Assembly: GCF_058153355.1 (NCBI RefSeq)
Contig: NZ_CM177019.1
Length of the DNA stretch: 64,000 bases
Strand: one strand, 5' to 3'
Below are positions 36,810 to 46,331 of the stretch, in pieces. How positions within the stretch are numbered: position 1 is the stretch's first letter; each line of letters begins with the position of its first letter. The notes below the pieces were generated by a model. That model was not told the DNA's origin. It searched no databases and was given only the letters and a program-made list of their open reading frames with translations. A program made the translations under genes and the position numbers.

Positions 36810-37295
36810 TTATTGGGGCCGATTTAGATCTATATGAGTCGTCTGAGCAGCCGGTATACGGGCTGAGCCATTGACTAAATTGGTATAATTTTTAAAATTG
36901 CCATATATTAGTTGTACATTATCTTGCGTTCGAGTTTCAATGATCAAGCTATCACAAATCATGATCATTCTGTAAACCCCCTCTTTTATAAAACTATGTG
37001 CGTCAATATTCTTGGTTTGTGGAGTGAAGTTCCCATTATTATCTGACTTTTGACAAGGAGCATAGTGTTCCATTGTTATAATAGCATCACCTGGTAATCC
37101 AAATATATCTTCAAAATTTGTCTGATCTGCTGGTGTCCATGCTTCCAGATTTTTCGCTCTGATATTCAATACTCGCTTTGTTTCTTTCAAAGCAGGGGTT
37201 ATCATGTTGTAAAATTGATCAGTAACCTTTGCTTCTTTTTTACACACATTGCCTTTTTGAGTTACTCCTTGTGAACTTCCTTTGTTATTATTCAT
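36810..37295 (-). CDS. Truncated paralogue of the HEXXH protein (lacks HEXXH region)
   Basis: ORF 36810..37310; N-terminal ~110 aa align with 39064..39855 (QFYNMI/HFKIMI; IFGxxG; GVxRLMII/GVYRMIMI) but the ORF ends before any HEXXH motif. Confidence 0.45.
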   Translation of the reverse strand: MNNNKGSSQGVTQKGNVCKKEAKVTDQFYNMITPALKETKRVLNIRAKNLEAWTPADQTNFEDIFGLPGDAIITMEHYAPCQKSDNNGNFTPQTKNIDAHSFIKEGVYRMIMICDSLIIETRTQDNVQLIYGNFKNYTNLVNGSARIPAAQTTHIDLNRPQ

Positions 37296-37700
37296 AAACA
37301 CCGCCCTCAATCATATCTATACTTTGATGCAATAGCCTGACTTTTATCGTCTGCTCACTGTCAGTGATAAATATTTCCGTATACCCATCCTTATCCGTTT
37401 CCCCTCGCGCTTGTGTGCCGTCCTCAAAAAAGGCAATGTAGCGTGTTTCTGAATACGGTATCCCGTCATCGTCTGTAAAATGAAACTGGAGGGTGTATTT
37501 CTCAGGTTCATCCTTATCTTCATTGTCGTTCCCAGAATCATTTCCATCGCCACCACCGACCCCGCCATTGCCTTGCCCGCCCTCTGCACCACCATCTTTA
37601 TCACTACCTTCATCCGTCAGTGCCTCCAGCACGCCCGGTTGCAGTGTCGGTACCGGAGTCCCCGGACTACCCCCACCATTCAGATTTATCTTCGGCCCCC
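37288..37700 (-). pseudogene. VgrG C-terminal fragment (last ~135 codons only)
   Basis: ORF 37288..37632 encodes DEPEKYTLQFHFTDDDGIPYSETRYIAFFEDGTQ, near-identical to the C-terminus of the intact vgrG; nucleotide similarity extends to ~37700, where it abuts the H-repeat remnant. Confidence 0.6.
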
Positions 37701-37709
37701 AGGGAAAGA

Positions 37710-38063
37710 TTACGAAAGCCCGCTCCCCGCAAGGACTGACGCCAGATACTTTCTGTCCATGGCTGCTTTTCGCATCTTACGTCTTAACCCTGCCTTGAAT
37801 ACCTTATCATTCGTCAAAATATTAATAGCGATGTGCCGTATCCCTGAAAATAATTCTGCTGCATTTCCTCTTCTTATTTTGCAGTCGTCTTCATTCATTA
37901 CCACGTCCAGACGCCAGTGCAGCTTATTCTCCACGTGCCCGTGGTTTCGGATTGCTGTGGCGAACTTCTCTGCGGTTAAATCAGCAGAACTGATATAATA
38001 TCTGACCGTCATTTCTGGCTCTTTCTTTTGTTCTGCTATTATGGACCGAAAGGAGACTGCCAC
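37710..38063 (-). mobile_element. ISAs1-family (H-repeat) transposase, C-terminal fragment
   Basis: 117-aa ORF ending …[23 protein letters not shown]…, resembling ISAs1/H-repeat transposase C-termini; no N-terminal part present. Confidence 0.55.
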
Positions 38064-38218
38064 GCATAATTTCTTCAGCCCTTTCCATTCAAACGTGAAA
38101 TCAATAAGTTCATCAGGGACATCGCAAACAATATGAAGACGGATTTCTTCTCTGCCGTGACTAAAATGCGAATTATTTAGTACAAAAAAAGCGGCGCACC
38201 TTGTTCTTTCCCAGATTC

Positions 38219-39040
38219 CTAATATGGCAACTTTAAGTTATCGCCGTCTATACTTATAGAAATTTCATCAGGGGTGACGTAAATAGAATTTTTTTCATCC
38301 TCAATTGCCCATAACTGATTAATAAAAAAGTGTTTTTTTTCATCTAATAACAAATTATCACATGTAGTAAAATTATTAATATCAAAAAGATCATCAGCAC
38401 AATTAATTTTTAAATTTAAAAAATAAAGAAAAATATTATTGATTGATTTGAGTGTAAACCACTTGTCATTAACAAATTTATAGCCAGATGATTTTATAAA
38501 ATAATAATTATCTCCTGGTATAAAGGCATACATATCATTTAAGGTTATACTCAACAAAAAACTACGACCTGGTTTAATAGTATTCCACCGTTCAGGATTC
38601 GTATTAATTTCAAAAGGACATGAACCACCTAAGTAGTCCAACGTGATATTCCCAGAGTTGATTCTGAATGGTTTTTTGCATATTGCATCATATTCATCTC
38701 CTTTTCCATCTTTTACTTTCATAGGTAGATAATATTTAGAAAAAAAATACGTGGTAGAGCTTTTGTTAGTAAAGGTTATGTTAGCAAAAATCCTGTTATT
38801 TTTTTTACTCATAGCTAATTGAGCATTGACATCCGCTATATAATTTATATGATTACATTTTTTCTTACACTCATCATAATTTTCGATAGGATAAATTAAT
38901 GGCCTTCCTTTGATATCTCTCTCAAGCCCAAACCCGTATTTTTTTATTAAAACCATTTCATCTGCAGTCGATTGAAAGGAATAGAAAAATATAATATTTA
39001 CTATTGTCATTATTATGATTTTTTTTATAGCTTGCAGCAT
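38219..39040 (-). CDS. Signal-peptide protein (candidate periplasmic immunity protein 1)
   Basis: 273-aa ORF with N-terminal signal-like segment ([16 protein letters not shown]); immediately downstream of the HEXXH protein; paralogous to 35583..36554. Confidence 0.5.
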
Positions 39041-39063
39041 TAATATATTTCTCGACTTATTAG

Positions 39064-39855
39064 TTAATGGAGAAGTGCTTTTTCTAATTCCGCTATTTTT
39101 TTCTTAACTAAATTGCTTAATATTTCATCATTAATCGAGTCTATCTCACTTTCAATTAATCTTATTTCAAAATATCTTTCTATGTTATATGCATTCTCAA
39201 ATATTTGATCTTTTTGTTTAGAGATCAGTTTAGTTGCAATACGGATATGTTCGTCATATGAAACTTCATCCTCTTTGCACGTTGAATATTTATCAGTAGT
39301 TGTATAATCCTGTGACCACATACCACCTTTTTTATTATCCCTATAATACCACTGAATATGAGACATTTCATGACATAAAGTAGCAACATGAGAATCCTTT
39401 CCCGTTACTGGATTTTTTTTGCCATCTCTATACTCAAATTTTGCGCCTATGTTAATTATATAGGGCATATCCTTACTTGGGCTGACGAATGCTGCAAATT
39501 CATTACAACCTGTATAATTTATAAAACTGCTCATTGTTAAATCATTAGCTATAATCATTAATCTTCTCACACCATCCATCATAAGAAATCTAGCATTCAT
39601 GCGCCTGCCTGTATTATGTCCATATTTTCTTATATTAACTTCCTTATTTCCTTTAACACCAAAGATCTTACTGAAATCATATTCCTCCTGTGCTCCCCAT
39701 CTCAAAAGATCATCTGCTCTTTTTATCAAAACCAACTTTTGTGCCTTACGAGCCTTATCAATCATTATTTTAAAATGATCAGTTATTTTTTGCTCTTTCA
39801 CACATTCTTCTGGCTCTGGCTTTGGTTGTCCAGAAGTTTGATTATTATCGTCCAT
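39064..39855 (-). CDS. HEXXH zinc-metallopeptidase-like protein (candidate VgrG-associated effector)
   Basis: ORF 39064..39891; contains CHEMSHIQWY (HEXXH); probable ATG at 39855 (MDDNNQ…) overlaps the vgrG stop by ~11 nt; AT-rich relative to vgrG. Confidence 0.55.
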   Translation of the reverse strand: MDDNNQTSGQPKPEPEECVKEQKITDHFKIMIDKARKAQKLVLIKRADDLLRWGAQEEYDFSKIFGVKGNKEVNIRKYGHNTGRRMNARFLMMDGVRRLMIIANDLTMSSFINYTGCNEFAAFVSPSKDMPYIINIGAKFEYRDGKKNPVTGKDSHVATLCHEMSHIQWYYRDNKKGGMWSQDYTTTDKYSTCKEDEVSYDEHIRIATKLISKQKDQIFENAYNIERYFEIRLIESEIDSINDEILSNLVKKKIAELEKALLH

Positions 39856-42250
39856 AGTGTCCTTCCATTGAGAGAAAATCATCATTCGCAAATAGCAACT
39901 TCACTTTAATTTCATGTTTGCTAGATACAAAAAAACGCTCTGTATACCCCTCTTCATCCGTTTCTCCGCGGGTCTGCGTGCCATCCTCAAAGAAGGCAAT
40001 GTAGCGGGTTTCTGAATACGGTATCCCGTCATCGTCTGTAAAATGGAACTGGAGAGTATATTTTTCAGGTTCATCCTCATCGTCACCTCGATCATCACCA
40101 CCACTTCCGGTCACGCAGTTCCCTCCAGAGTTTTCATTTTCTTCTCCGGAATCACTGCCATCACCACTCTTCTCATCCCCCAGTGTCTTCAGCACCGCCG
40201 GTTGCAGCGCCGGCACCGGCGCTCCCGGACTACCGCCGCTATTGAGATTGATTTTCGGCCCGACGATGTCCACGCCCCCTGAATGGATGACCACAAACGA
40301 GCCCCCCACCTTCAGGCTTATCCGGCTGCTGCTCTCCAGCACGATATCCCCGTCCACCTTTATCCCCAGCGCGCCACTCACCTTCTCCGCCAGGTCGCCC
40401 TTCACCTCCAGACTGTGCTTCCCCTCCACCAGACTGATATGGTTCCCCGTCGTCTTATGCTCCTGCTTCCCTTCCACCGTCACTTTACGGTCGTTTCTGA
40501 CATACAGGCCGTCATCGTGACTCACGCTCACCGTCCGGTCATTCGTCACCTTCAGCGTCTGGTCATTACGTACCGTTATGCGCCGGTCGTTCGCCACCGT
40601 GATACTCTGGTCGTGACCCCCTTCTTTTCTGGTGCCGACCTCAACCGTCTGCCCCTTCACCACCCTTATCTTCTGGTCGTTACCGATGGTCTCCGTATGG
40701 TCATGCTTCACGTCCGTCGTCCGGTCGTTAAGCACCTCCGTGTCCATGTTCTTCTGCGCGTGGATATACACCTGCTCACTGTCCGTCGCATCCTCGAAAC
40801 GCAGTTCATTAAAGCCGCTTCCTTTATAGGTCTTCGAGCGGATGGTCATCTGCGTCCGCGTGCCCGGTAAATCCCCCGGTGAACGGTTATCTTCATGGTA
40901 GGTCCGCCCCGTCACAATGGGCTGGTCCGGGTCGCCGTTCAGAAAGTCCACTATCACTTCCTGACCCACACGCGGTATCGCCAGATTGCCGAACCCCGGT
41001 CCCGCCCATGCCTGCGACACCCGTATCCAGCACGAACTCTCCTCCGTCATCCCGTGATAACGGTCCCAGTGAAACTTCACCCGTACCCGGCCATGCTCGT
41101 CGCAGAATATCTCCTCACCCTTCGGCCCGGTCACGATGGCACTCTGCGGGCCGTCCACCTTCGGCTTCGGCAGCGGCGCGTGACGCCACGTCCTGTCTGC
41201 CGGTATCACCTCAAACTGATTGCTCAGTGTCGTCCCTTCACCGTGACTCCCGTGCAGCGCCTGCGGCTGTTCTCCCCGCAGTGTGCTTCCCACAACCTGC
41301 CATTCCCGGTTCAGCGTCTCTGAGGGATGGCCCGTCAGCCGGAACCGCGTTCCCGGCCACAGCCGCGCCGTGTTACACACCCCGCTCGCCGTCTCCGCCC
41401 CGTTCCGCCACCCTTCCGTCTGGTAACGCGCAAAATCCTGGCCATGCTGCTCATCCTTGAAACGCCCCGGATAATCAAATATCTCGTACTGCGTTCCCTG
41501 CCCGTTCAGGCTCTCCCCGTCATGGCTGTAGTACCCCGGCCACCCCGGCGTTTTGAACGTATAATCCTGCGTCTCCACCGACGCCACGCTTATCTGCGCA
41601 CGGTAACGAAACTCACTGATGTACTCCGTCGTTCCCCCGGTCGTGGTATTCGGGTTAAACGCCAGCGCCCCCATTCCCGTCAGCCCCGCCACGTCATCAC
41701 ACACCGCCAGCTTCTGCTCCGGCCCTTCCTGACCGCAGCGCTCATAAAAGAAGATACCTTCCTCCGCCCACAGCCGGGTCAGGAATGCCAGGTCGCTCTC
41801 CCCGTACTGCACGCAGAACTCCCGCGCCGGGTGCGCCTCATAGAACAGCGGCATCCACGCCGTCACCCCGTTCTCTCTCAGAAGCTGTGCTGATATCGTC
41901 TGAATGTCCTGCTGCTGGAAGATACGGAAGTTCTGCCGTAACCCTGCCCGCCACAGCGGCGGGCTGATGCTCAGGGAATAACGCATCTGCCAGTCGTTGT
42001 TCTCACCGAGCTGCACCTCCGTCACGATACCGCTGACGTAACGCTGCGGGATATCACCCTGCCAGACCGTCAGCACCGCGCTCTTCTCCAGAAAATCCTC
42101 CGCCGTCAGGTCGGGCAGCCCGCTGGCGATATCCACATCCAGGATGAACGGCGTGCAGTGGTGCTGGTACAGACGGAAGCTCACCACCGCCGTCGCCATC
42201 TCCACGATACCGGCCACCGACAGCGTGAAACGTAATCCTTCTGCTGCCAT
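39845..42250 (-). CDS. vgrG: Type VI secretion spike protein VgrG with C-terminal extension
   Basis: ORF 39845..42283; N-terminus MAAEGLRFTLSVAG…AVVSF, gp5 OB-fold motif GPQSAIVTGPKGEEIFCDEHGRVRVKFHWDR, beta-helix repeats, then Gly/Asp/Glu-rich linker and ~80-aa terminal domain; no YD repeats. Confidence 0.85.
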   Translation of the reverse strand: MAAEGLRFTLSVAGIVEMATAVVSFRLYQHHCTPFILDVDIASGLPDLTAEDFLEKSAVLTVWQGDIPQRYVSGIVTEVQLGENNDWQMRYSLSISPPLWRAGLRQNFRIFQQQDIQTISAQLLRENGVTAWMPLFYEAHPAREFCVQYGESDLAFLTRLWAEEGIFFYERCGQEGPEQKLAVCDDVAGLTGMGALAFNPNTTTGGTTEYISEFRYRAQISVASVETQDYTFKTPGWPGYYSHDGESLNGQGTQYEIFDYPGRFKDEQHGQDFARYQTEGWRNGAETASGVCNTARLWPGTRFRLTGHPSETLNREWQVVGSTLRGEQPQALHGSHGEGTTLSNQFEVIPADRTWRHAPLPKPKVDGPQSAIVTGPKGEEIFCDEHGRVRVKFHWDRYHGMTEESSCWIRVSQAWAGPGFGNLAIPRVGQEVIVDFLNGDPDQPIVTGRTYHEDNRSPGDLPGTRTQMTIRSKTYKGSGFNELRFEDATDSEQVYIHAQKNMDTEVLNDRTTDVKHDHTETIGNDQKIRVVKGQTVEVGTRKEGGHDQSITVANDRRITVRNDQTLKVTNDRTVSVSHDDGLYVRNDRKVTVEGKQEHKTTGNHISLVEGKHSLEVKGDLAEKVSGALGIKVDGDIVLESSSRISLKVGGSFVVIHSGGVDIVGPKINLNSGGSPGAPVPALQPAVLKTLGDEKSGDGSDSGEENENSGGNCVTGSGGDDRGDDEDEPEKYTLQFHFTDDDGIPYSETRYIAFFEDGTQTRGETDEEGYTERFFVSSKHEIKVKLLFANDDFLSMEGHYGR

Positions 42251-42539
42251 ATAAACCCCATAGCTACCGCACTCATAGTGCAAACCATACGGGCTTATAA
42301 GAAAGGCTTAAGTGAGATATCTGCCAGATAGCAACTATTAGGAAAATATTTATATACATTTCATGAATACATTCATTAATACCGAGATGTTTTTGTCTAT
42401 ATAAACAGAGCAAGCTAACGTCCTCACTCCATGAAAGAAACTACGTAGGGGCCTTTCGGTCCATAACAACTTTTTCCCTGTTATATCCTGACGTTCTGGT
42501 CTACTGGTGTAGTCATGCATATTGCAACGTTCTACCCAT

Positions 42540-42756: not shown

Positions 42757-43065
42757 TTACTTAGAAATTTGCAGAGATATAAACCACGAGATATATCCAC
42801 CTTTTGAGTTAACAGTTACAGACGTTATAACATTATCTTTTATCCAGATATCAACAAAAAAGTCCTTACCACAATAAAGACATTCACAATATCCTTCAGA
42901 GATAAAGTTGTCCTTAAGTTTATTTCTGGTTATATTAATAAGTTTATCGCCAGGATTGTAATGTACTAAATTTCCAGATGGCACAAACATCTCAATTTCA
43001 CACTGTCCTGACGTTCCACATCGAGGGCAAACGCACCATGCTTTCAATAAATCATAATTCGACAT
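42757..43065 (-). CDS. Hypothetical small protein with two CxxC pairs
   Basis: 102-aa ORF with CPRCG…CLYCG; AT-rich. Confidence 0.3.
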   Translation of the reverse strand: MSNYDLLKAWCVCPRCGTSGQCEIEMFVPSGNLVHYNPGDKLINITRNKLKDNFISEGYCECLYCGKDFFVDIWIKDNVITSVTVNSKGGYISWFISLQISK

Positions 43066-43115: not shown

Positions 43116-43472
43116 CTAAACTATTCCCATAAAATACAACGAGATAATTTTACTGTTAAACGTACATTCACAAAACTCAGGGGAAGAAAAATGACCATCA
43201 GTCAAAAATAAAGATAGTTTGCTTAGTGCGTAATCAATTGAATCAAGCGACAAGTATAATTTTATTACTAGTGAGTCCTGTATCAGGACATCATCTTCAT
43301 TGGGGGATTGTAAAAGTAATAAATTTTTATACGCTACAGGTGATCTGTTTTCCAGTCTAATAGGTTTGCTTGCTTCCGTCTCCAATAAACTATAAAGAGC
43401 ACAAACCATCTCATGAGCATCATCTTTATCAAAATATAAATGAAAACCGCCCAGAGATTTGTTAGCAATCAT
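43116..43472 (-). CDS. Hypothetical protein
   Basis: 118-aa ORF in AT-rich island; no recognisable motif. Confidence 0.3.
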   Translation of the reverse strand: MIANKSLGGFHLYFDKDDAHEMVCALYSLLETEASKPIRLENRSPVAYKNLLLLQSPNEDDVLIQDSLVIKLYLSLDSIDYALSKLSLFLTDGHFSSPEFCECTFNSKIISLYFMGIV

Positions 43473-43939: not shown

Positions 43940-46331
43940 ACAATCTTGCAAAATCAATATATTGCACGATCTGTCGGGTAGCAGCGATTCATTACTGTCT
44001 CGCCGCCCCCTAAGAACGGTACGTGCGAGTTTCCCCGCATACCGCTCAAGCCTTTATAAGCCTCCACCTTGTGGGAGACCAGCGTCATTACTATGTAGTT
44101 GTCGATGGCAGTTGGGATGGAGTAGGACTAAATTGCTCACATCATCGCTACCGCCAAGAGATTTCTTGAGCAAATGATGAACATTCCATCCTGTATCGCG
44201 ATTAATCGGTTGCTCACATAAAGGGCAGCGCGATCCTTGCCTTTTCCATATAGCGAGAATCCTTTTCTGCCCCTGTTGGGATTTCTTCCATGAGTAGTCC
44301 AGCCTTCTTTCGAAGTATGTTTCCCACTCGGGATCATATGGATTTGCCGTTCCCTTTATTTTTATATAGCGATTAATATGGATGTCGCTGGCCCGGGACA
44401 GAACATATTTCCTACCCTCCGGATCGACTCCATAAAATCGACCATGACACATTTTTATTGTCGTGTGGTACTTTCGGAAGATCCATCTCCGGCCTTTGCC
44501 GGGATGTCTCCTTCTGCACCACTGCCAGATTTTGCGCCAGATTTGGTTGTCGACATAGTTAAATGTCTCTGCCGATGCTACATGTTGGTGATAGTTTGCC
44601 CACCCGGTGATGATTGGATTAAGCAGATTTATTAGCACCCATGCAGGAACCGTTCGGTTACCTTCAATAGTCTCTCTGATCTTGCTAAGAAATTGTTTAA
44701 CGTTTTTCTTGGCTGGTCTGATTATGAGTTTTCTACCGAAGCGTCGGACGTGCTGCCCAAGGAAATCAAATCCGTCAGTAATGTGAGTGATGACCGTTTT
44801 CTCTTCGGATAACGTCAGCCCTCTTTCTGCAAGAAATGATTTCACCAACGGAAGAACATTCTCCTCCAGAAGTTCTTTCGACTTTCCGGAAATGATGAAA
44901 TCATCAGCATACCGGACGAAGTGAACCTGATGTTTCCTGAATGTTTTTGAGCGTTTCGGACCAAAGCGATTTTGCAGCAGTCTTTCCAGTCCATCCAGGG
45001 CCATGTTTGCCAGAACTGGAGATATGATTCCTCCCTGGGGTGTACCCGAGAGAGTTTTGCTGAATATGCTTTTTTCGATGATCCCGGCTTTCAACCAATT
45101 ACGGAGTATTTGCTTGTCCATAGGAATATTTTCAAGCAGCCACTCGTGGCTAATGTGTTCAAAGCATCCTTTAATATCGCCTTCCAGAACCCATTTCGAG
45201 GCGTTCCGGGAACTATACATATTACATACCTGTTGAATGGCGTCAGCCGTACATCGCGCTGGTCTGAAACCATAACTGTTGTGATCTGCATTAGTTTCCG
45301 ATACAGGCTCCAATCCCAGCAGATGCAGGGCCTGCATTGCCCTGTCAAGCATGACGGGGATTCCTAATGGTCTTTTCTTGCCATTAGATTTGGGTATAAA
45401 AACTCTTTTTAGCGGTAGGGGCTTGTACCCTTTTCGCCTGAGTTTGAATATCGCTTCCCATTTTGATTCTGGAGTACTCCAGATTTGACCATCAACTCCG
45501 GGGGTTTTACGCCCGCTATTTTCCGTAACTCGTTTCACCGCCAGTGCTCTGGCGCTGAATGAGCGAACCAGCAATCGTTGCAATCTACCGACTGTACGCC
45601 ATTGCTGGTTACATGCCGCCTTTGCGATTCTTGTCTGTATGGTTTTAACGTGTTGATGGCATTTCTTCCAGTTAATGGAATGCCAACCTTTTCCGTTGAT
45701 GACCGCAGTTACATTGTTAGATGTAATTTTCATACATGTCATCCAAAGAAACCTTCGCAGATGTTTCGCAATTAAAGACCAGATGGAAGTCAGCACGGTT
45801 TCCCGTTAAGGCAAATATTGAACCTCTATCCGCACGATTACAGTCCGGCTTTCGCTTTTTCCATCCTCCTTTACCCGCATTCTCATCAGTTTGCCTTACG
45901 GTGCCCCTGCCACTAGGGCGAGAATTCGGGCTTACCAAGTTCCGACCAACATACAAAGAACGGGTTAGGTTCTGTCTATCCGCCGGGGGAGTTATTGTCC
46001 ATGTATTCCCACTACGAACAGGAATAGCCTTACCCCTTACCTTTTGGTGCAAGCCTATCAGCATCTTTGGCTCGTTCTCTGTTACGACGTTTAACGACAG
46101 TTCACTATGTTAACCATACCGCCCAGCCTAGCGCTCTCGCCGCATGATGCTTGTAGCGATCAGGTTTTCTCACGATTAACTGAAGCAATATTTGCTAAGC
46201 TACATTGTCCCAAGGGCTTCAGACAGAGCCGTTACCAGCTTTGCCTGCCTCAGTAGGCTACAACTAATGGAATAGTTGGTTTTATATAAATAATTTATCA
46301 AAACAATATGTTGGACGACTTCTTGTCGCAC
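43940..46331 (-). mobile_element. Group II intron (about 2.4 kb; 3' boundary approximate)
   Basis: Minus strand begins GTGCGAC at 46331; ~535 nt precede the ORF (room for domains I-III); RT/maturase/HNH ORF in domain IV; domain V-like agcggtatgcggggaaactcgcacgtaccgttct at ~44012-44047; short hairpin after it (candidate domain VI). Confidence 0.8.
44054..45796 (-). CDS. Group II intron-encoded reverse transcriptase/maturase with HNH endonuclease
   Basis: 580-aa ORF: RT palm motif FVRYADDF, maturase-like region, C-terminal HNH (CPLCEQ…NVHHL…HPNCH). Confidence 0.85.
   Translation of the reverse strand: MLTSIWSLIAKHLRRFLWMTCMKITSNNVTAVINGKGWHSINWKKCHQHVKTIQTRIAKAACNQQWRTVGRLQRLLVRSFSARALAVKRVTENSGRKTPGVDGQIWSTPESKWEAIFKLRRKGYKPLPLKRVFIPKSNGKKRPLGIPVMLDRAMQALHLLGLEPVSETNADHNSYGFRPARCTADAIQQVCNMYSSRNASKWVLEGDIKGCFEHISHEWLLENIPMDKQILRNWLKAGIIEKSIFSKTLSGTPQGGIISPVLANMALDGLERLLQNRFGPKRSKTFRKHQVHFVRYADDFIISGKSKELLEENVLPLVKSFLAERGLTLSEEKTVITHITDGFDFLGQHVRRFGRKLIIRPAKKNVKQFLSKIRETIEGNRTVPAWVLINLLNPIITGWANYHQHVASAETFNYVDNQIWRKIWQWCRRRHPGKGRRWIFRKYHTTIKMCHGRFYGVDPEGRKYVLSRASDIHINRYIKIKGTANPYDPEWETYFERRLDYSWKKSQQGQKRILAIWKRQGSRCPLCEQPINRDTGWNVHHLLKKSLGGSDDVSNLVLLHPNCHRQLHSNDAGLPQGGGL

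Follow-up and report, generated by a model that had tools for sequence, protein, structure and literature searches.

The window analyzed here, a 64,000-nucleotide stretch of NCBI RefSeq assembly GCF_058153355.1 (contig NZ_CM177019.1), contains three consecutive minus-strand genes that encode a VgrG spike protein of a type VI secretion system (T6SS), a 263-amino-acid (263-aa) zinc metallopeptidase (E1), and a 273-aa partner protein (I1). The locus belongs to an E. coli chromosome and lies between mnmH/allS and ybbP, which we take to be the site where rhsD sits in K-12. It is very probably an orphan vgrG island encoding a T6SS spike with a cargo toxin/immunity pair, a confidence that applies to our best explanation as a whole: spike, loading, periplasmic toxin, propeptide-like immunity protein, and module exchange. 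With less assurance, we lean toward two more specific proposals. First, the immunity proteins of this family would be homologues of the propeptide that inhibits M35 peptidases, now detached and exported by Sec, the toxin/immunity pair having arisen by fission of a zymogen. Second, a TTR-like tail of VgrG (∼75 aa), rather than DUF2345, would match the spike to the effector subtype.

The first-pass annotation of this DNA had described a vgrG gene with a C-terminal extension, an overlapping HEXXH open reading frame (ORF), and a partner with a signal-peptide-like N terminus; all three ORFs were found on the minus strand at the positions it gave, and they are real and intact. Its claim that the effector/immunity pair is new does not stand, since an orthologue of the toxin and a paralogous effector/immunity pair have already been published. 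Modules of this kind have been annotated and studied experimentally before.

E1 is an M35 zinc metallopeptidase encoded directly behind vgrG

The vgrG (tssI) gene is intact (39845..42250, minus strand) and encodes an 801-aa protein from an ATG at 42250; the mechanically called ORF, 39845-42283, begins with TTG and would give 812 aa. The protein matches the TssI/VgrG model TIGR03361 (E 7.7e-177, 589 bits, against a cutoff of 186), contains the Pfam domains Phage_GPD (4.8e-75), Phage_base_V, and Gp5_trimer_C expected of a TssI/VgrG spike, and finds VgrG1a/VgrG1 among PDB sequences (E 1e-93). A gp27-like hub, an OB-fold, and a gp5-like beta-helix are thus combined in one protein, as in other T6SS spikes. 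When nine local ORFs were scanned with NCBIfam, VgrG was the sole match.

The gene for E1 (39064..39855, minus strand) begins within the last vgrG codons (...cac tATGgacgaTAA), so that the two ORFs overlap by 11 nucleotides (nt), and an AAGGA ribosome-binding site lies upstream of its ATG. The protein starts with MDDNNQTSGQPKPEPEE and lacks a hydrophobic segment there, a signal peptide, and any propeptide in cis. Its CHEMSHIQWY stretch is encoded at about 39346-39375 and includes the HEMSH zinc-binding/catalytic motif (39358..39372, minus strand), an HExxH of the M35 type in which H162, E163, and H166 do not vary among 21 family members. Also invariant in the 21 members is D183 (39307-39309), located in GGMWSQDY and proposed as the third zinc ligand, a role that falls in M35 peptidases to the Asp of a GTxDxxYG-type motif; it follows H166 by 17 residues in E1, compared with 10 in short family members and ∼9 in AsaP1 of Aeromonas salmonicida. 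Further downstream, N221-A-Y-N-I-E-R-Y-F229 (39169-39195) is invariant in the form N221-A-Y-N-(I)-E-(R)-Y-F229, the I and R positions being bracketed. By residue pattern, NAYNIERYF is probably the counterpart of the NAD-x-x-E-Y-F helix in AsaP1 and GfMEP, with E226 kept and the Asp replaced by Tyr223. In M35 enzymes, the Asp and Glu of the NAD-x-x-E helix set the peptidyl-Lys (P1′ Lys) specificity. E157 of GfMEP has a role in Lys specificity (PMC11985622).

Is this pattern accompanied by homology to a known peptidase family? A search of 5.8 billion proteins with E1 returned 29 relatives, all enterobacterial, and a phmmer search of PDB sequences gave no useful match. In PDB, a profile of 21 family sequences matched AsaP1 (2x3a) with E 8.7e-6 and, with E 1.5e-3, the peptidyl-Lys metalloendopeptidase of Grifola (1g12). 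The Pfam family PF14521 was matched by 15 of the 21 members at E≤0.1 and by 2 at E≤1e-3, the best value being 2.3e-6. The catalytic domain of E1 has the fold of GfMEP, AsaP1, and deuterolysin. By fold and profile match, E1 is an M35 (aspzincin) zinc endopeptidase, contrary to the earlier statement that it bears no obvious similarity to characterized peptidase folds; it is listed in RefSeq as "peptidase M35" or "M35 family metalloendopeptidase".

The first-pass annotation had also allowed that the HEXXH ORF might be a regulatory peptidase of the ImmA/IrrE type (M78) unrelated to secretion, for which only the HEXXH motif itself and the protein's small size speak. Against it, neither Pfam nor NCBIfam gave an M78-type match, the fold is that of M35, the adjacent genes are vgrG and I1 with no helix-turn-helix repressor among them, and linkage to vgrG with translational coupling is strict in every genome examined. 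We rejected this identity on the basis of fold and gene context and regard its probability as negligible.

A close orthologue has been studied in strain BCE049, whose "M35-peptidase" FQU84_13640 (module 5) is identical to E1 at 260 of 263 positions. That protein reduced E. coli survival only when it was fused to a PelB leader (PMC7904677), so the earlier expectation that the toxin acts in the periplasm is supported by an orthologue of 99% identity. In that study, the VgrG orthologue is assigned to the T6SS2 spike (PMC7904677).

An analogous case is VgrG2b of Pseudomonas aeruginosa with PA0261 (PMC6899460), in which a zinc peptidase carried by VgrG is toxic only in the periplasm, a signal-peptide-bearing immunity protein neutralizes it, and a TTR-like fold stands beside the toxin. 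It differs in that the toxin is fused to VgrG and combines HEXXH with Glu983 in a thermolysin-like fold, which is not that of an aspzincin. E1 is not an evolved VgrG of this type; it is a separate ORF with an aspzincin fold. Homology of E1 to the VgrG2b metallopeptidase was considered and rejected, as VgrG2b is of the gluzincin type and is absent from the sequence and fold matches of E1. VgrG2b is an analogue rather than a detectable homologue.

The core of I1 is homologous to the M35 propeptide

I1 (38219..39040, minus strand) is the proposed immunity protein on the grounds of synteny, co-divergence with the effector, and a characterized paralogue. Its N terminus resembles a signal peptide (residues 1-26, ending with STA before DE; 38963..39040, minus strand), with two Lys residues followed by a hydrophobic 12-mer of mean Kyte-Doolittle value 2.88, as judged by a hydrophobicity heuristic and not by SignalP. 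The same heuristic finds a signal-like N-terminal segment in I2, a second family member encoded further downstream, and in 44 of 54 aligned members of the family. I1 is therefore predicted to be periplasmic, which fits the compartment in which the toxin acts.

Searches with the I1 sequence against Pfam, NCBIfam, and PDB (phmmer) returned no match. A profile built from six partner proteins found 139 representative proteins among 1.84 billion, and the family profile of these 139 representatives likewise matched nothing in Pfam or PDB. One Cys is invariant in the six-partner alignment and nearly invariant among the 54 family members. I1 consists mostly of beta-strand, and Foldseek against AFDB retrieved, beyond the protein's own family, sponge "lysine-specific metallo-endopeptidase" proenzymes and BsuPI-domain proteins. 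Because I1 is mostly beta-strand and E1 already covers the catalytic half of AsaP1, the part of such proenzymes that I1 matches must be the pro-domain.

Sequence evidence for this correspondence came from a bridging family, A5, an alignment of 30 single-domain relatives taken from the tail of the search. The A5 profile matches residues 31-155 of AsaP1, the propeptide, at E 1.4e-13; it matches the I1 family with 99.7% probability (E 2.5e-26), and in direct comparison it scores 75 bits with I1 and 64 with I2. Fold and transitive profile homology together show that the core of I1, a beta-sandwich of approximately residues 68-190 (38471..38839, minus strand), is homologous to the inhibitory propeptide of M35 peptidases. 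With A5 as the bridge, E1 and I1 correspond to two halves of one M35 zymogen: in the proenzyme 2x3a, E1 finds its counterpart in the catalytic domain and I1 in the propeptide domain.

In AsaP1, the propeptide inhibits the enzyme intramolecularly. More generally, M35 propeptides hold the enzyme inactive until they are removed (PMC11985622). The M35 zymogens AsaP1, GfMEP, and deuterolysin share with E1 the HExxH motif, the downstream Asp, and the NA-x-N-x-E-x-F helix, with the Tyr223 substitution noted above. They differ in being single Sec-secreted polypeptides with the propeptide in cis, whereas here the two halves are encoded apart, export is confined to the one that resembles the propeptide, and the catalytic one exits through the T6SS. 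E1 is not a zymogen in cis; its propeptide homologue is the product of a separate gene, I1.

A paralogous pair has been characterized experimentally. The M35-PAR effector (AKO63_2955) kills E. coli, AKO63_2956 rescues the cells, and a C-terminal piece of the cognate VgrG binds M35-PAR (PMC10673891). Primers in the supplement of that study identify M35-PAR as the P0023-type gene of our comparison loci L007 to L009 and AKO63_2956 as the partner gene that follows it. These proteins belong to the same effector family (35% identity) and partner family (24%) as E1 and I1, and the VgrG piece that binds the effector has the same terminal domain, ending in ...GGVHE. Unlike the window genes, the PAR genes lie within a T6SS core cluster and their VgrG is of the DUF2345/T6SS_Vgr type without an acidic linker; the authors attribute the interaction to DUF2345 and leave the nature of the immunity protein undiscussed.

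Could E1 instead be mainly a protease directed against the host, with I1 keeping E1 activity under control in the producer, as a folding chaperone or inhibitor acting in trans? AsaP1 is a lethal fish toxin. Moreover, M35 propeptides both inhibit their enzymes and aid folding (PMC11985622), and I1 is homologous to them. Against this stands the different routing of the two proteins: of the two, only I1 carries an export signal, and E1 is loaded while still in the cytoplasm, which means that they would not meet in the producer. In addition, E. coli is killed by the E1 orthologue acting in its periplasm and protected by the paralogous partner, and I1 persists without E1 in some genomes, as an intact 261-aa ORF in DA61218. 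We consider this role quite improbable and favor a periplasmic antibacterial toxin with its immunity protein.

Our literature search found no account of an immunity protein as a homologue of the M35 propeptide. Several observations on the propeptide-like proteins are recorded here. P0124 and P0129, at 344 to 354 aa of about the size of AsaP1, were tried as fused zymogens and set aside, having no HEXXH and a different conserved C-terminal domain. P0121, P0124, and P0129 each carry a propeptide-like domain fused to this other conserved domain of ∼90 aa, with no HEXXH and with the pattern ...SG.SSP.SGLWEPL.G...IPQWKD.KG.Y.IEW.LV.... No aspzincin gene adjoins the bridging-family members P0127, P0139, and P0151 on their short contigs. 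On a short metagenomic contig (L014:142-1216), two tandem genes encode single-domain propeptide-like proteins, which suggests that arrays of putative inhibitors occur outside Enterobacteriaceae. Finally, the I1 gene is rich in A/T homopolymer runs. The BCE049 copy (L020:3240-4110) has three 1-nt indels in such runs, and the gene is split into several ORFs in CFT073 (L010:5004-6009) and 19AR1724. These are either real frameshifts or assembly errors, so annotations of the I1 gene are unreliable.

The VgrG C-terminal domain varies with the effector subtype

Beyond its spike domains, VgrG continues with a Gly/Asp/Glu-rich linker read from the translation (residues 691-728; 40067..40180, minus strand) and ends in a TTR-like domain and tail recognized by conservation and profile (residues 729-801; 39848..40066, minus strand), which we propose as the effector-loading domain. 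The linker differs in length and sequence among loci and is missing from the DUF2345-type VgrG of L007. The terminal domain has the pattern FxFTDDDGxPY...DGTQ..G.TD..GYTE. These last 73 residues are kept in every VgrG that precedes a member of the M35 effector family, across two VgrG classes, the L007 protein being of the unrelated DUF2345/T6SS_Vgr type. The extreme tail tracks the effector subtype: ...EGHYGR accompanies E1-type effectors and ...IDMI(E/L)GGV(Y/H)E accompanies E2/P0023-type effectors.

The best PDB match of the terminal-domain profile is to the TTR region of enteroaggregative E. coli (EAEC) VgrG1, and this match, together with the co-variation of tail and effector, supports the earlier suggestion that the extension is of the cargo-recruiting kind. 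In the EAEC VgrG1-Tle1 system (PDB 6SJL/6SK0/6SKI), a C-terminal TTR domain of VgrG likewise recruits a separately encoded cargo effector; there, the cargo is a phospholipase. The TTR region of VgrG1 is needed for delivery of Tle1, as cited in PMC6899460. With respect to the PAR study, the construct found to bind M35-PAR, "DUF2345-PAR", has ...LGGVHE as its end and therefore includes the TTR-like terminal domain. The literature searched held no description of a TTR-like tail as the determinant that pairs spike with effector subtype.

The three-gene module recurs and is exchanged between loci

All E1 homologues examined, including those of Salmonella, Buttiauxella, and other E. coli loci, lie directly after a vgrG gene with an overlap of 8 to 11 nt; the recurrence of gene order and overlap argues that the arrangement is not due to chance. 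Each homologue is followed by a protein of 266 to 308 aa with no Pfam domain, and in the loci examined an I1-type partner always follows the effector. The Salmonella trio adjoins vipA/vipB/hcp, and the trio of E. coli L007 and L009 is embedded in the core cluster, with clpV-vgrG on one side and tssM on the other. Sequence identity declines in parallel for effector and partner (63/42, 55/39, 35/24, and 34/22%), so that a vgrG-linked effector is followed by a co-varying partner, the gene linkage of T6SS effector/immunity pairs. This recurring order, together with the published orthologous toxin and paralogous toxin/immunity pair, upholds the initial reading of the locus as a VgrG-linked effector/immunity module.

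Genome counts throughout refer to 5,426 complete E. coli genomes. E1-I1 DNA was detected in 640 of them (about 12%), with both genes in 508, and is kept at 98 to 100% across hundreds of genomes. The vgrG gene in front of it is mosaic. Window positions 37780-40700, which comprise an ISAs1 fragment, I1, E1, and the last ∼285 vgrG codons, are 94 to 100% identical to a copy at the yncG-yddH locus of T-HYM1, whereas the 5′ two-thirds of vgrG is only 65 to 80% identical. The mosaic breakpoint falls within vgrG at about 40700-40900. The 5′ two-thirds is a rare allele, with a match of ≥95% in 3 genomes and ∼78% elsewhere. Base composition differs as well, with a GC content of 0.26 to 0.36 over E1/I1 versus 0.56 to 0.63 over vgrG in a composition scan. 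The swapped cargo module postulated from the sequence is supported by the identity pattern.

The BCE049 module (effector locus 1, module 5, VgrG-O2) has the same order of 801-aa VgrG, effector, I1 gene, and ISAs1 fragment. It differs from the window in being located at yncG-yddH with a PAAR gene upstream, in having the yncG-yddH-type vgrG (65 to 80% DNA identity in the 5′ two-thirds, as measured against T-HYM1), and in the three homopolymer indels of I1 in that assembly; the data of that paper concern effector toxicity.

Downstream of the active module lies what appears to be its predecessor. An ISAs1 transposase fragment (37710..38171, minus strand; annotated by RefSeq in N96 and MFDS1022581) separates the active from the displaced module, and at the yncG-yddH locus, too, I1 has this fragment behind it. 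Next comes a displaced vgrG 3′ fragment (37288..37701, minus strand) that extends from GPKINLN, the equivalent of VgrG residue 664, to the stop codon; it includes the linker, the TTR-like domain, and an E2-type tail and is 73% identical to VgrG residues 723-793. E2 (36496..37295, minus strand), a second effector of the M35 family with 34% identity to E1, is a pseudogene here, with family HMM matches in three frames; compared with the intact 266-aa gene of N96, it is interrupted by a nonsense mutation (TAC>TAA) and has lost 1 nt from an A8 run. Its partner I2 (35583..36554, minus strand; 323 aa, probable start at Met8) is intact and constitutes a second immunity gene of the family (BLASTP against I1, E 3e-21 and 23% identity; family HMM, E 2.2e-70). 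E2-I2 occurs in only 3 of the complete genomes, with E2 intact in all three. The whole island is common to only 3 genomes, MFDS1022581, MFDS1019527, and N96.

A third subtype is present at the yncG-yddH locus (L010:6228-7622 in CFT073; L021:5726-7118 in DA61218), where a short effector of 200 aa (E3; CHEFSH...NGYNIERYFE) is accompanied by a partner of the same family (I3). In CFT073-type strains, E3-I3 stands beside vgrG at this locus and an orphan I1 lies behind it without E1. The orphan is an intact 261-aa ORF in DA61218 and is fragmented in CFT073 and 19AR1724; this fragmentation weakens the use of I1-only genomes as proof of selection for orphan immunity. The displaced module resembles the orphan toxin/immunity arrays of Rhs and CdiA systems, in which a displaced 3′ fragment of the carrier gene is found downstream with toxin and immunity genes and the toxin decays while immunity stays intact. 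The two differ in that VgrG is the carrier here and the toxin has an ORF to itself, whereas in those arrays the toxin is a fused C-terminal domain. The literature searched reported neither the match between the VgrG terminal domain and TTR nor the displaced downstream E2/I2 module.

Firing apparatus, evidence against, and proposed mechanism

The window vgrG is most similar to the spike of the UTI89-type cluster. A chimeric query of E2-I2 plus UTI89 tssC matched two places in each of the three island genomes, compared with one each for E2-I2 alone; therefore, the three island-bearing genomes carry a UTI89-type tssC. A position guessed for the T6SS core in MFDS1022581 proved to be a prophage.

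Several results weigh against the interpretation proposed here. Taken alone, E1 matches PF14521 at i-E 0.0045, below Pfam significance, and has no match in NCBIfam. Direct hhalign comparison of the I1 family with the AsaP1 propeptide is weak (probability 10%, E 0.0032), in the same register; therefore, the homology rests on the bridging family A5 and on fold similarity. By analogy, I1 may block E1 in trans in the periplasm as the AsaP1 propeptide blocks its own enzyme, by a putative propeptide-like docking, and the immunity role of I1 is proposed, protection being known only for the paralogue AKO63_2956. The likeness of the VgrG terminal domain to EAEC VgrG1 (6sjl, residues 780-830) is marginal (E 0.0015; domain E 0.017), and the PAR study credits effector binding to DUF2345 and not to the terminal domain (PMC10673891). 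The flanks compared (the aligned MFDS1022581 region, which leaves out the first ∼26 kb of the window) contain no T6SS core genes, and no PAAR gene lies upstream of the window vgrG, unlike at the yncG-yddH locus.

The last two points also bear on whether the island is a silent relic, an orphan without PAAR or core genes of its own, mosaic and flanked by insertion sequence and intron debris, that is no longer expressed or fired despite its intact ORFs. Decay is evident nearby: E2 is already a pseudogene, the N96 vgrG at the same locus is frameshifted, the ISAs1 fragment and a group II intron are close at hand, and I1 copies are fragmented in CFT073, BCE049, and 19AR1724. However, vgrG, E1, and I1 are intact here with the coupling overlap kept, the three island-bearing genomes also have tssC, E1-I1 is 98 to 100% conserved over hundreds of genomes, and the BCE049 study assigns the VgrG orthologue to the T6SS2 spike. 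We judge a silent relic to be unlikely and retain the interpretation of a functional spike with its cargo module.

How might such a module work? Translation of E1 is coupled to that of vgrG through the 11-nt overlap. In the cytoplasm, the protein would be loaded onto VgrG at the TTR-like domain and tail, a step suggested by the co-variation of the tail, the TTR homology to EAEC VgrG1, and the published binding of the paralogue. A UTI89-type T6SS would fire the spike into neighboring cells, where E1 is expected to cleave an envelope or periplasmic substrate, given the published periplasmic toxicity of the 99%-identical orthologue. I1, exported by Sec to the periplasm, would protect the producer and its kin, most likely by sitting over the HEMSH cleft of E1 as the AsaP1 propeptide does. 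The pair would then represent a zymogen whose halves have come to occupy separate genes and separate compartments. New modules would enter by recombination in the 3′ third of vgrG, shifting the earlier vgrG 3′ end downstream along with its effector and immunity gene, to the place now taken by the E2 pseudogene and intact I2.

As a toxin/immunity pair, the module adds little, the effector having been tested, named by RefSeq, and found in about 12% of complete E. coli genomes. Beyond the literature searched, we infer two things, the propeptide origin of the immunity protein and a TTR-like tail that matches spike to cargo. If true, fission made the catalytic half of a zymogen into T6SS cargo and its inhibitory pro-domain into an immunity protein of the periplasm, obstructing the active site in trans. 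Toxin/immunity pairs could then evolve by the splitting of a zymogen. Such pro-domain immunity would offer a concrete, testable structural model for the neutralization of this family of T6SS peptidase toxins, and genes for propeptide-like beta-sandwich proteins could serve as a search handle for hidden protease effectors. Co-variation of the VgrG tail, together with the displaced vgrG-3′/E2/I2 module, suggests that spike specificity and cargo travel together in exchange and would refine the published DUF2345-based loading model.

Other features of the locus

Terminator-like and promoter-like signals did not exceed shuffle expectation and gave no operon limits. Just 5′ of vgrG, two small AT-rich ORFs lie on the minus strand, 42757-43065 (102 aa, with two CxxC pairs) and 43116-43472 (118 aa), neither with an NCBIfam match. 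Between this upstream region and ybbP is a group II intron (43973-46279, minus strand) with Rfam matches to RF00029 at 43973-44049 and RF02012 at 46132-46279 and a 580-aa reverse-transcriptase/maturase ORF at 44054-45796; it is missing at that position in the three genomes that otherwise share the island. Finally, a hexanucleotide repeat, (GCAGTA) × 26.5 with 100% matches, occupies window positions 35013-35171 in AT-rich DNA (∼30% GC). It encodes ∼27 Ala-Thr dipeptides within a 153-aa ORF (34811-35272, minus strand) that has a hydrophobic N terminus, and the length of the repeat could change in frame.

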